A DNA stretch of 64,000 nt, from NCBI GenBank assembly GCA_009015555.1, contig GCA_009015555.1_3613.1; one strand, written 5' to 3'. The notes under the pieces are model-generated. The model had not been told where the DNA came from, did no database searches, and saw only the letters and a list, made by a program, of their open reading frames with translations. This stretch comes from a phage. A program made the translations under genes and the position numbers. Of this stretch, positions 56,596 to 57,898 are shown piece after piece (position 1 is the first letter of the stretch; the number at the start of each line of letters is the position of its first letter).

Positions 56596-56760
56596 GAAAG
56601 GAAGAGGGTCCAAGCTGGTAATGCGAGAGGCGAGTCCTCAGACCAAAGCCCAGATGGAGGCCACCCTAAAGTCGTCCAACCGAAGGTCCCTGATTGAGTA
56701 ATACTTCCCCGCTTGTCGGGTACAGTTCTCAGTCACACCGGAAGGGGCGCACCCTATAAT

Positions 56761-56836
56761 TGACGGTGAGCATATAAGGACATGCGGGGGCCTGTTAAGT
56801 CCAGGATAGCTGGTTCGAATCCAGTACCGTCAGCCA
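56761..56836 (+). tRNA. tRNA-Asn (anticodon GTT)
   Basis: Acceptor TGACGGT/ACCGTCA, loop CTGTTAA, T-loop GGTTCGAATCC, CCA. Confidence 0.75.
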
Positions 56837-56945
56837 ATTTGGTTCCGACAAGGTGACGGCGCACCCCGGAGCGACGCTGAAAGATGCAGGCCGACGAACA
56901 CATACGTGTACTTAATCAATAGTCATTGCGATGGCTATTCGTTAA

Positions 56946-57023
56946 GTCCTGGTAGACAAACTGGATAAAGTCACCACCCTTTCAAGGTGGGGTTTGAGGG
57001 TTCGATCCCCTCTCAGGACGCCA
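56946..57023 (+). tRNA. tRNA-Glu (anticodon TTC)
   Basis: Anticodon stem CCACC/GGTGG, loop CTTTCAA, T-loop GGTTCGATCCC, CCA. Confidence 0.75.
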
Positions 57024-57117
57024 ATCTTTTAGGTCGGTAGATTAATGAGCAAAGGCCGCTCGCTGGATTCCAACCCCAGTTCAAGGCGTTCGATTCGTCA
57101 CCTTCCTGCCAAATTCA

Positions 57118-57193
57118 GGTCCTATGGTATTAGCGGTAAACATACTCGCCTGTCACGCGAGAGTCACGGGTTCGAATCCCGTTAGGACCGCCA
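57118..57193 (+). tRNA. tRNA-Asp (anticodon GTC)
   Basis: Acceptor GGTCCTA/TAGGACC, loop CTGTCAC, T-loop GGTTCGAATCC, CCA. Confidence 0.8.
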
Positions 57194-57200
57194 CTTCAAA

Positions 57201-57275
57201 TGGGGATTAGCTCAGGGGTAGAGCGCACAACTGATAATTGTGAGGTCGGTGGTTCGAAACCACCATCCCCAACCA
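57201..57275 (+). tRNA. tRNA-Ile (anticodon GAT)
   Basis: Acceptor TGGGGAT/ATCCCCA, loop CTGATAA, T-loop GGTTCGAAACC, CCA. Confidence 0.8.
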
Positions 57276-57345
57276 AACAGCCCCTCCCGGGATTGGACCG
57301 GGTTAACGGCAATCGCACACTGAGGCGTCTTCCGGGGGAACAATA

Positions 57346-57422
57346 CGGTGTATAGCGCAGCCTGGTAGCGCATCTGGTTTGGGACCAGAGGGTCGCTGGT
57401 TCGAGTCCAGCTACACCGACCA
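57346..57422 (+). tRNA. tRNA-Pro (anticodon TGG)
   Basis: Acceptor CGGTGTA/TACACCG, stem TCTGG/CCAGA, loop TTTGGGA, T-loop GGTTCGAGTCC, CCA. Confidence 0.8.
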
Positions 57423-57428
57423 AATTAT

Positions 57429-57503
57429 TGCGAGGTAGTTCAGCGGTAGAACAGGGGTTTCATACGCCTCATGTCGGCAGTTCGATTCTGCCCTTCGCAA
57501 CCA
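57429..57503 (+). tRNA. tRNA-Met (anticodon CAT; initiator/elongator/Ile-lysidine not resolved)
   Basis: Acceptor TGCGAGG/CTTCGCA, loop TTCATAC, T-loop AGTTCGATTCT, CCA. Confidence 0.7.
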
Positions 57504-57509
57504 AATCAT

Positions 57510-57587
57510 GCTCCAGTAGCCCAATTGGTAGAGGCACTTGATTTAGGATCATGTCAGCGATGAGTTCGAATCTCTCCTGGAGTACCA
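57510..57587 (+). tRNA. tRNA-like gene with Leu anticodon TAG, short variable arm and weak T-stem; identity uncertain
   Basis: Acceptor GCTCCAG/CTGGAGT, D-arm CCAATTGGTAGAGG shared with 55638 tRNA, loop TTTAGGA, A73, CCA. Confidence 0.45.
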
Positions 57588-57593
57588 CATAAA

Positions 57594-57667
57594 GCGGGCA
57601 TGGTATAGTGGTTGTGCCTTAGCCTTCCAAGCTAATGAGTCCGGTTCGATCCCGGATGTCCGCTCCA
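57594..57667 (+). tRNA. tRNA-Gly (anticodon TCC)
   Basis: Acceptor GCGGGCA/TGTCCGC, stem TTAGC/GCTAA, loop CTTCCAA, T-loop GGTTCGATCCC, CCA. Confidence 0.8.
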
Positions 57668-57740
57668 ATTCACGGTGAGTCACTGCCGTTAAGTGTGAAG
57701 TTAAAAATGCCCGTGGTGATCGGGTTATCTCACCCAGTGT

Positions 57741-57816
57741 AGGGGATTAGTTTAATTGGTAAAACATCGGGTTTTGATCCCGACATCGCGAGGTTCGAAT
57801 CCTCCATCCCCCGCCA
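57741..57816 (+). tRNA. tRNA-Gln (anticodon TTG)
   Basis: Stem TCGGG/CCCGA, loop TTTTGAT, T-loop GGTTCGAATCC, CCA; 1-72 is A-C mismatch. Confidence 0.7.
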
Positions 57817-57898
57817 CATTAATGCTCATTAGCTCTTGTCAGTGGAACTCGAACCCTTAGAGCAGGCGACACAGACGTGTGTTTTAGTGAGCATCAAT

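Follow-up and report, generated by a model that had tools for sequence, protein, structure and literature searches.

What fills the long gaps in a phage tRNA cluster, and could any of it act as RNA? In the window analyzed here, a stretch of 64,000 nucleotides from a Certrevirus whose cluster region is 98% identical to that of Cronobacter phage CR3, the gaps between tRNA genes are bimodal by ARAGORN boundaries, nine measuring 1-7 nt and the other six 70-165 nt. The six long ones, called S1 to S6 here, lie at 56596-56760, 56837-56945, 57024-57117, 57276-57345, 57668-57740 and 57817-57898. The original prediction had drawn six long spacers with exactly these ends, and had suggested that they hold either processed non-tRNA RNAs, by analogy with the small stable RNAs of phage T4, or decayed tRNA genes. 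The cluster is flanked by a promoter-like site (55731-55759) and a strong terminator (59067-59085), and no + strand terminator-like site was found within it.

Methods that take one sequence at a time single out little in these spacers. By folding energy, the hairpins of S2 to S6 are indistinguishable from chance (Z-scores against shuffles of +0.2 for S2, -1.5 for S3, -0.2 for S4, -0.95 for S5 and -2.05 for S6). A scan of the cluster against Rfam (E<=10) matched no family to any spacer, but this silence is uninformative because Rfam also misses genuine ToxI arrays, T4 rnaC and rnaD, and the plasmid sRNA described below. Relaxed ARAGORN searches, with and without introns, made a single + strand call among the spacers, S3, which rules out hidden canonical or intron-bearing tRNAs. 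That the spacers are not chance sequence is a conclusion resting on comparative evidence. Each spacer, in whole or as a module, has conserved counterparts in other phages, and compensatory base changes are seen among them. None of the six long gaps looks like neutral spacer; judged by such comparison, each contains elements that are conserved and for the most part structured, on the same strand as the tRNAs, in keeping with the idea of processed non-tRNA RNAs. The elements are as follows.

56596-56760, + strand: S1, homolog of T4 rnaD (species 2 small stable RNA), identified by covariance model
56596-56668, + strand: long 5' domain of S1
56669-56692, + strand: invariant core of S1, AAGTCGTCCAACCGAAGGTCCCTG
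56691-56735, + strand: variable hairpin of S1
56744-56752, + strand: 3' strand of S1, GGGGCGCAC, pairing with GTCGTCC at 56671-56677
56842-56902, + strand: S2 module, a bipartite hairpin (56842-56872) and an invariant 32-nt tail, GCGACGCTGAAAGATGCAGGCCGACGAACACA (56871-56902)
56918-56939, + strand: 3' hairpin of S2, AATAGTCATTGCGATGGCTATT, directly 5' of tRNA-Glu
57031-57111, + strand: S3, aberrant tRNA-Trp(CCA)-like RNA, from a ten-copy alignment
57281-57338, + strand: S4, structured RNA module
57673-57708, + strand: 5' half of S5, a single 36-nt ToxI-family unit (pseudo-ToxI), CGGTGAGTCACTGCCGTTAAGTGTGAAGTTAAAAAT
57710-57724, + strand: 3' hairpin of S5, CCCG-TGGTGAT-CGGG, then TTATCTCACC, just 5' of tRNA-Gln
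57822-57894, + strand: S6, three-way-junction RNA

S1 as a member of the T4 rnaD family

A covariance model (R1) of rnaD, made from 10 T4-like phage sequences and no Certrevirus sequence, has one match in the 64 kb, at 56642-56753 on the + strand (36.8 bits, E=6e-7), and it matches all Certrevirus loci at the equivalent place. The analogy to the small stable RNAs of T4 is thus one of true homology. S1 shares with T4 rnaD an invariant core (AAGTCGTC..GKTYCCCTG), a 3' GGCGCA, two long-range helices, a variable hairpin and a place directly after a cluster tRNA. In both long-range helices base pairs covary, one pair being C-G in 13 sequences and G-C in 8, another U.G in 11 and G-C in 9. S1 begins 1 nt past tRNA-Lys, on the tRNA strand of the tRNA cluster, T4 rnaD begins 2 nt past tRNA-Arg, and the Kosakonia copy comes after tRNA-Trp; T4 rnaD is annotated as a small stable RNA within the T4 tRNA region. 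The two differ in that S1 alone has an extra 5' domain of ~70 nt, a feature also found in Kosakonia phage 305 and some T4-like UViGs, and in their origins, T4 rnaD coming from Straboviridae and S1 from Vequintavirinae. In this comparative sense, sequence, structure and location together show S1 to be a member of the T4 rnaD family. Expression of T4 rnaD has been confirmed, and no function for it is known (PMC9697503, PMC3014915). S1 widens the family past T4-like phages, and the covariation-backed partial structure offers a foothold for studying an RNA that has gone without an assigned role since the 1970s.

No homolog of rnaC, the neighbor of T4 rnaD, was found in the window; T4 rnaC and rnaD together gave no match to plasmids; and the rnaD model found no matches in the loci of other phages that contain S4-, S5- or S6-like elements. 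T4 rnaD and one ToxI variant do have GTCGCTACCG..TAAGT in common. Derivation of rnaD and S1 from ToxI was considered and set aside as only a lead, the ToxI pseudoknot pairing being lost in rnaD and the hairpin loop being variable across the family.

A maintained tRNA-like RNA and two structured modules

S3 is the one spacer that derives from a tRNA. The motifs that the original prediction had quoted from it are all in the sequence (a T-arm-like GGCGTTCGATTCGTC, CCTTCCT-G-CCA and the hairpin CTGGA-TTCCAAC-CCCAG), as are those quoted from S4 and S6, given below. The prediction was mistaken, however, that S3 has no matching 5' acceptor strand: AGGTCGG at 57031-57037 pairs with CCTTCCT at five of seven positions. 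The two acceptor mismatches fall at 4:69 and 5:68, neither of which pairs in any of the 8 distinct sequences. Ten of the twelve Certrevirus loci fetched were aligned, and S3 was found in all ten; it is missing from phiTE and CB7, where that part of the cluster is lost, and from PcCB7V. Compensatory changes at five pairs, distributed across the D, anticodon and T stems, support a four-arm cloverleaf, and 86.8% of cells in the alignment are paired versus 41-58% in slid controls.

The nearest relatives of S3 beyond the genus are the tRNA-Trp genes of Salmonella phage 7-11. Like these and the canonical tRNA-Trp of Kosakonia phage 305, it has a CCA anticodon in a 7-nt loop (TTCCAAC, 57068-57074), A1:U72, G73, the T-loop TTCGATT, a 5-nt variable loop and an encoded CCA end. 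Unlike them, it separates the acceptor and D stems by 9 nt instead of 2, carries the two invariant acceptor mismatches and has a 4-bp T stem, and it fails both the Rfam tRNA model (no match at E<=10) and default ARAGORN, which calls it only at the 80% threshold and with the wrong anticodon. None of 21 records annotates it as a tRNA. The alignment thus shows S3 to be a genus-wide, conserved, aberrant tRNA-Trp-like RNA that is maintained rather than decaying. The suggestion of decayed tRNA genes is therefore not supported: only S3 is tRNA-derived, and S4 and S6 are not tRNA remnants.

S4 and S6 are shown by comparison to be structured RNAs common to unrelated phages. S4 combines an outer helix (CCCCT/GGGGG) with the hairpin CCCGG-GATTGGA-CCGGG and a tail, GCACACTGAGGCGTCTTCC, that is conserved; among the relatives, CR3, CR8, PBES02, DU_PP_I and POP15 carry it. 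A homolog lies between tRNA-Phe and tRNA-Met in the unrelated Salmonella phage 19, in which the corresponding hairpin, GTTCG-GATTGGA-CGAAC, is fully compensated. S6, which contains the dyad ATGCTCA...TGAGCAT, is made up of a 7-bp outer helix, a 5-bp helix whose 22-nt loop (TGTCAGTGGAACTCGAACCCTT) is conserved, and a 6-bp helix closed by the loop GACG. Homologs occur in the Buchananvirus Sa179lw, the Ithacavirus Salmonella phage S5, the Gamaleyavirus PhAPEC5 and UViGs. Over its 18 pairs, 95.6% of cells are paired, compensatory changes are seen at 10 pairs, and the G.U pairs are consistent with the + strand. A metagenome scan for S6 returned two Sa179lw-like phage contigs only, and its pattern had zero matches in 185,579 bacterial species genomes.

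It could be argued that all of this is neutral debris: decayed tRNA genes and scars of homing endonucleases or recombination, hitchhiking with the flanking tRNAs and devoid of function. tRNA genes are highly recombinogenic, and 772 phage records match the cluster. HNH endonuclease ORFs occupy the S2 position in CR3 and PcCB7V and stand elsewhere in the cluster in other relatives. Further, module content varies among close relatives (S4 is missing in CR9, KaOmega and F1M1E, and within Certrevirus S6 is found in CR3 and CR8 only), and S3 does come from a tRNA. Yet helices throughout S1 to S6 are preserved through compensatory base changes, and the S1 element is retained in phiTE and CB7 despite their loss of nearly all tRNAs. 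Moreover, the homolog of S6 in Sa179lw is not part of a tRNA cluster at all but belongs to a unit that has a promoter and a terminator to itself, and functional bacterial RNA genes match the modules of S2 and S5 nearly base for base. Neutral debris thus strikes us as a very improbable account of the spacers.

S5, S2 and known or putative bacterial antitoxin RNAs

By its sequence match, S5 is a carrier of one ToxI-type antitoxin RNA unit, i.e. a pseudo-ToxI. The unit has the same length as those of ToxIN arrays and differs by 1 mismatch, over the 33 nt compared, from the units of Pantoea pBH6cv2_D. The matching arrays consist of 3-6 tandem copies between a promoter and a terminator, 5' of toxN; the ORFs 3' of the arrays on E. 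coli and Pantoea plasmids encode ToxN (Pfam PF13958, E=1e-40), and among the plasmids with such a toxIN locus is E. coli pRHB38-C24_2 (CP057076). The pseudoknot pairs of the S5 unit (2-15, 3-14, 9-25, 10-24 and 11-23) are all standard, as they are in the arrays, and 9-25, 10-24 and 11-23 covary across ToxI variants. The pair U9-A25 is stated in PMC3475682, and the others were inferred in this analysis. In contrast to the arrays, the S5 unit is single and embedded between tRNAs, with no toxN beside it and neither a promoter nor a terminator to itself; Tandem Repeats Finder detected no tandem repeat of it in 56300-58100.

The closest precedent is phiTE, whose pseudo-ToxI lies in the corresponding region and for which mimicry has been demonstrated experimentally (PMC3475682). 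S5 shares with it the phage genus, the tRNA cluster between homologs of phiTE_202 and phiTE_203, and the character of a short non-coding ToxI-repeat homolog on the tRNA strand with its pseudoknot pairs retained. But the phiTE element comprises 1.5 out-of-phase units in a tRNA-like scaffold, whereas S5 has one complete unit in the tRNA-Gly to tRNA-Gln spacer, and S5 resembles not the ToxI of P. atrosepticum but another subfamily (GGWGAGTCRCTRCCGTTAAGTGYGAAGTTAAAA), which occurs on plasmids of E. coli, Pantoea, Serratia, Shewanella and Vibrio. Units in the same spacer number three in DU_PP_I, one in PcCB7V and none in CR8 and CR9. In all, 181 phage records match parts of S5, and many of these cover the unit (query 7-40); carriers include, for example, Phapecoctavirus and KVP40-like phages, where the unit is again located in tRNA spacers. 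In the literature covered, which was incomplete, phiTE is the only Certrevirus for which we found ToxI-like units or other non-tRNA RNAs described in the tRNA cluster. RNA mimicry of type III antitoxins is experimentally known from one phage, phiTE; S5 represents a different ToxI subfamily and a lone unit, found again and again between the tRNA genes of many phages that are not related, and such recurrence would make RNA mimicry a general strategy rather than a curiosity.

S2 leads to a second bacterial RNA. Its module, a bipartite hairpin followed by an invariant tail (GACGCTGAAARATGCA.GC.GACGAACA), has a tail 97% identical to sequences on 14 enterobacterial plasmids. In all seven bacterial loci an ORF of 320-334 aa with a PemK/MazF domain is followed, after 40-60 nt, by the related sRNA of ~100 nt, which carries a promoter and a rho-independent terminator of its own; the ORFs share a mutual identity of just 41-58%. 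A MazF-like ORF of this kind occurs in Cronobacter turicensis. No gene for a protein antitoxin was called next to the toxin gene at these loci, and PADLOC has no model for the MazF-like protein. A type I (antisense) mechanism seems unlikely, as pairing between the sRNA and the toxin mRNA is nowhere longer than 8-9 nt. The phage copy in the window lies between tRNA-Asn and tRNA-Glu with no toxin gene, promoter or terminator of its own; because these are absent we class S2 as an sRNA homolog rather than as a member of a two-gene module, and their absence is expected of a mimic. Both stems show compensatory changes among phage and bacterial copies, and phage copies occupy tRNA clusters in at least five phage lineages. 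In one UViG, an S2-type tail and a ToxI-like unit adjoin each other within a single spacer. Because both stems of the hairpin in the window differ from the bacterial ones, its specificity could differ as well. Taken together, these comparisons show S2 to be a phage-borne copy of the sRNA that accompanies a MazF-like toxin gene in enterobacteria; that sRNA is a putative antitoxin, and the pair a putative defense against phage. We found no description of this pair in the literature searched, the coverage of which was incomplete; S2 thereby leads back to a candidate new toxin-antitoxin or defense system in bacteria.

The 3' segment of S2 (query 74-109), with its hairpin, is 87-100% conserved in 11 of 12 Certrevirus loci and survives even where an HNH endonuclease gene replaces the rest of S2; it is possibly a processing element. 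The 3' hairpin of S5 likewise shows 93-100% conservation across Certrevirus loci, including those that have no ToxI-like unit. Hairpins 5' of tRNA-Glu and tRNA-Gln that persist whatever else their spacer holds raise the possibility that the elements are cis-acting signals for processing or regulation of the polycistronic tRNA transcript (RNase E, III or P entry sites, folding insulators or internal promoters) and not trans-acting RNAs. Each element does lie directly between tRNAs on the same strand, and a promoter-like match at 56732-56760 overlaps the end of S1. However, the -10-like TATAAT at that end is not conserved in relatives, and nine other junctions of the same cluster need just 1-7 nt. 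In addition, the T4 homolog of S1 accumulates as a discrete stable RNA, and the S5 unit and S2 module are copied from RNA genes that stand on their own in bacteria. As a general account of the six spacers, cis-acting signals seem quite unlikely.

A possible role in evading host defenses

With moderate confidence, we favor the explanation that each of the six "spacers" is a gene for a small RNA, made on the same transcript as the tRNAs and set free when these are processed, and that at least two of the RNAs are antitoxin mimics. The spacer RNAs and tRNAs would form one + strand transcription unit, from which the former would be excised by the enzymes that mature the flanking tRNAs, namely RNase P at tRNA 5' ends, 3' trimming activities, and CCA repair by a host or phage nucleotidyltransferase. 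S5 and S2 would then be molecular mimics, as modeled on the pseudo-ToxI of phiTE. When infection stops host transcription, the labile host antitoxin RNA would disappear, and S5 or S2 RNA made by the phage could bind the freed ToxN or MazF-like protein, averting abortive infection. In this way the tRNA cluster probably also aids evasion of host suicide defenses.

For S5 in particular, the lone unit could act directly, or it could provide a starting point from which the repeat expands or recombines with toxI of the host. Alternatively, the S5 unit and S2 module might be inactive relics of recombination with host plasmids, at most raw material for escape mutants and of no present protective value. 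In phiTE, the wild-type 1.5 repeats are not protective, protection coming from expansion to 4.5-5.5 units or from capture of toxI, and a single aligned pseudo-ToxI unit is not antitoxic when overexpressed (PMC3475682). The window, too, has one unit without a tandem repeat, and the 5' tail of that unit is non-cognate (AUUCAC versus the cognate junction AAAAUC). Opposing this, many phage genomes, from several families, retain a single unit almost identical to this one, mostly located between tRNA genes, and the S5 unit retains all of its pseudoknot pairs. Further, the S2 fold is maintained via compensatory changes. One ToxI repeat is reported to be enough to inhibit ToxN in P. atrosepticum (Fineran 2009, Blower 2009). 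On balance, we think it unlikely that the two modules are inactive relics.

S1, S3, S4 and S6 could, as a guess, also be decoys or partners of host or phage proteins that recognize RNA; searches of PLSDB plasmids and of complete E. coli genomes turned up no bacterial RNA corresponding to S1, S4 or S6, which leaves mimicry speculative for these three. A bolder and rather doubtful proposal is that phage tRNA clusters double as cassettes of anti-defense RNA decoys, including S2, the rnaD family, S4, S6 and S3. Were it true, S2 would reveal a so far undescribed abortive-infection system of Enterobacterales, composed of a MazF-like toxin and a ~100-nt sRNA antitoxin, together with its phage mimic, and the rnaD family, S4, S6 and the aberrant tRNA-Trp would decoy other RNA-recognizing host defenses. 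One member of that family, T4 RNA D, is not known to have been assigned a function in about 50 years. For annotation, gaps of at least 70 nt in phage tRNA clusters should count as candidate RNA genes.

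Probable small RNA genes between the tRNAs

The window's tRNA cluster shares 98% identity with the cluster of Cronobacter phage CR3 (genus Certrevirus, Vequintavirinae), and ARAGORN at default settings finds 18 tRNAs in it. The ends of its six long spacers coincide exactly with ARAGORN tRNA boundaries, and the motifs originally quoted are found in them. The remaining gaps between neighbouring tRNAs are 1-7 nt; thus, there are two classes of gap length. The original prediction, that the spacers hold tRNA-like remnants, stem-loops and possibly small stable RNAs, was correct as to the kind of element but overlooked the most important content. 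Judged from sequence, the best description of the region is a series of small RNA genes set among the tRNAs.

Probable small RNA genes in the long spacers S1-S6 (window coordinates)
S1, 56596-56760: rnaD homolog
S2, 56837-56945: copy of a toxin-linked bacterial sRNA
S3, 57031-57111: aberrant tRNA-Trp-like RNA
S4, 57281-57338: structured RNA
S5, 57668-57740: one pseudo-ToxI unit, with a separate 3' hairpin
S6, 57822-57894: structured RNA, three-way junction

Folding energies of the spacers are not clearly better than those of shuffled sequences (z, +0.2 to -2.05), and an Rfam scan of the spacers at E<=10 gave no match. Rfam is likewise silent on genuine ToxI arrays, T4 rnaC/rnaD and the plasmid sRNA of S2 type, so its silence here is uninformative. 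Both are weak as single-sequence evidence; the weight of evidence is comparative, and comparison establishes the homology and structure of the spacer RNAs.

Default ARAGORN misses a tRNA-Tyr(GTA) whose variable arm is long (56326-56413), and Rfam gives it only a weak tRNA-Sec-like match (32.9 bits); the CR3 record labels the same element tRNA-Tyr, which brings the canonical tRNAs in the cluster to 19, not 18. HNH homing-endonuclease genes occupy differing insertion points in the tRNA clusters of Certrevirus relatives (loci L001, L006, L010, L011 and L012), and none lies in the tRNA-cluster stretch of the window.

S1 and S3, relatives of T4 rnaD and tRNA-Trp

S1 is kept in 12 of 12 fetched Certrevirus loci, even in phiTE and CB7, where almost all tRNAs are lost. 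A distant BLAST match places an S1-like element after tRNA-Trp in the T4-like Kosakonia phage 305, and T4 rnaD (species 2 small stable RNA) has in common with S1, in identical order, the blocks AAGTCGTC..G(G)TTCCCTG and GGCGCACC. Further members occur in T4-like uncultivated viral genomes (UViGs). A covariance model built from ten T4-like sequences and no others matches the window at 56642-56753 (+) with 36.8 bits (E=6e-7); the rnaD-family model has this single match in the window and matches every Certrevirus locus at the S1 position. Two long-range helices covary. In GUCGUCN x N'GGCG(C)AC, the closing pair is C-G (n=13) or G-C (n=8), and in GKU x ASC, the middle pair is U.G (n=11) or G-C (n=9); the helix alignment was fitted to the model, and the base swaps are still evident in the raw sequences. 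On these sequence comparisons, S1 joins the rnaD family as a new and remote member, and because of that homology, it is probably stable. In T4, expression of RNAC and RNAD is late, and accounts from 2010 and 2022 (PMC3014915, PMC9697503) still gave them no known function. Between tRNA-Glu and S3, CR3 carries a further tRNA-like element (L001 2597-2690), absent from the window. Its acceptor stem pairs perfectly over 7 bp, it has D and T arms, and its "anticodon" loop is 13 nt; the 10-mer AAGTCGTCCA occurs both in it and in the S1 core.

S3, the sole spacer called by relaxed ARAGORN on the + strand, is kept in ten Certrevirus genomes and annotated as a tRNA in no record. Its cloverleaf is supported by compensatory change in five pairs and by 87% of cells paired, versus 41-58% in slid controls. 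The 7-nt anticodon loop presents CCA, position 73 is G, A1 pairs with U72, and the CCA end is encoded; these are the TrpRS identity elements. The closest sequences beyond Certrevirus are tRNA-Trp genes. Two invariant features are abnormal: no copy can form acceptor pairs 4:69 and 5:68, and 9 nt connect the acceptor and D stems. S3 is under selection as an RNA, and it may decode or may serve as a decoy or ligand.

S5 and S2, counterparts of toxin-linked RNAs

The 5' half of S5 has matches in many phage records of several families, and synteny at the Gly->Gln spacer revealed its identity. In DU_PP_I, the equivalent spacer holds three tandem 36-nt units, AGGTGATTTGCTACCTTTAAGTGCAGCTAGAAATTT; PcCB7V has one related unit, and CR8 and CR9 have no ToxI-like unit there. 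Arrays on 76 plasmids, Pectobacterium plasmids included, match the DU_PP_I units at 99% identity. The DU_PP_I units differ from the annotated pseudo-ToxI of phiTE (a phage mimic of ToxI, the RNA antitoxin of the type III ToxIN system) by U9C, A25G, C27G and U28A, exactly the positions given by Blower et al. These three units (L010 3388-3495) are unannotated in the record, and DU_PP_I is a natural counterpart of phiTE-F, a laboratory escape phage.

With three copies of the window unit as query, tandem arrays were found on E. coli, Pantoea, Serratia, Shewanella and Vibrio plasmids. Those of E. coli pRHB38-C24_2 (3 units) and Pantoea pBH6cv2_D (6 units) are preceded by a sigma-70 promoter, followed by a terminator and lie directly upstream of ToxN ORFs (Pfam ToxN_toxin, E=1e-40). 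The window unit (57673-57708) differs from the Pantoea units by 1 base in 33, and pairs 9-25, 10-24 and 11-23 covary among ToxI-like variants. By sequence, then, the 5' half of S5 can be identified with certainty as a pseudo-ToxI, one that belongs to a second ToxI subfamily. The 3' half is a separate hairpin (57710-57724), conserved with or without the ToxI-like unit.

The mechanism of ToxI mimicry is established in phiTE, whose wild-type 1.5 units are inactive, expansion or toxI capture being required (Blower et al.). The window has the unit once, with no tandem repeat of it found, and its 5' flank, AUUCAC, is supplied by the tRNA-Gly end and is not the cognate junction; this single unit may have antitoxin activity. 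T4-like Serratia phages escape ToxIN by tRNA-region deletion (PMC5449768), which shows some interaction of ToxIN with tRNA regions. In phiTE, the annotated pseudo-ToxI (L002 2775-2895) lies within an apparent split tRNA: 5' acceptor and D-arm sequence precedes it, and a T arm and acceptor-CCA end follow it.

The 5' two-thirds of S2 consist of a bipartite hairpin and, after it, an invariant 32-nt tail. Copies in phages lie within tRNA clusters; they occur in Certrevirus, Mydovirus Ro1, the Stephanstirmvirinae phage KP13-26, the T5-like DU_PP_V, a 358-kb jumbo-phage contig and others; in CR3 and PcCB7V, the module is replaced by an HNH endonuclease gene. Both stems show compensatory change (GUUCCG/CGGAGC versus UAGGGG/CCCCUG; GGUG/CACC versus GAGA/UCUC).

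On 14 enterobacterial plasmids, unannotated sequence matches the tail at 97% identity. Seven bacterial loci were inspected, on plasmids of Pantoea and Serratia and on the chromosomes of Leclercia, Serratia, Cronobacter turicensis, Pectobacterium aroidearum and Morganella. In all seven, the element is an ~100-nt sRNA gene with a rho-independent terminator and a promoter of its own (TTGACT-N17-TGTAAT) that overlaps the preceding ORF's stop codon. That ORF, 40-60 nt upstream of the sRNA, encodes 320-334 aa with a central PemK/MazF domain, and the linkage holds although the ORFs are just 41-58% identical among themselves. No protein antitoxin gene adjoining the ORF was called at the seven loci, and no antisense match links the sRNA with the toxin mRNA. 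The protein is not covered by any PADLOC model, and the literature searched held no description of the pair. By analogy with ToxIN and pseudo-ToxI, the sRNA would be the antitoxin and the phage copy its mimic, and the ORF and sRNA (L159 1965-2075, L160 2483-2575, L161-L166; Enterobacterales) are a candidate new toxin/RNA-antitoxin pair. In metagenomic phage L168 (a 146.8-kb UViG; ~4030-4105, - strand), an S2-type tail is directly followed by a ToxI-like unit in one tRNA spacer, just upstream of tRNA-Asn, an adjacency that fits a common role.

S4, S6 and expression of the cluster

S4 is present in some Certrevirus genomes and not in others. A homolog lies between two tRNAs in the unrelated Salmonella phage 19, where the stem CCCGG/CCGGG is fully replaced by GTTCG/CGAAC and the GATTGGA loop is the same. 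S6 is a three-way junction with homologs in four other phage lineages; 95.6% of cells in its 18 pairs are paired, ten of these pairs have changed in a compensatory way, and the G.U pairs are consistent with the + strand only. In siphovirus Sa179lw, at a locus where ARAGORN finds no tRNA genes, the S6-like element lies within an ~480-nt non-coding unit (L140 about 1281-1805) that has its own sigma-70-like promoter and rho-independent terminator and is antisense to the flanking tail genes, which argues for an independently expressed RNA. The collections searched held no bacterial counterpart of S4 or S6.

A promoter-like site (55731-55759) precedes the region, a strong terminator (59067-59085) follows tRNA-Phe, and no + strand terminator was found within the cluster. 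In the simplest reading, the spacer RNAs would be co-transcribed with the tRNAs and released by tRNA-processing enzymes, in agreement with the known behaviour of T4 rnaC and rnaD; the S5 unit and the S2 module may have anti-toxin activity. Certrevirus phages encode a tRNA nucleotidyltransferase (PMC7344957), which could finish CCA-like 3' ends. Also within the cluster, between tRNA-Ser(TGA) and tRNA-Ser(GCT), is a 247-aa glycine-rich ORF (58042-58785), a homolog of the phiTE_203 "virion structural protein," whose predicted GTG start overlaps the end of the upstream tRNA-Ser.
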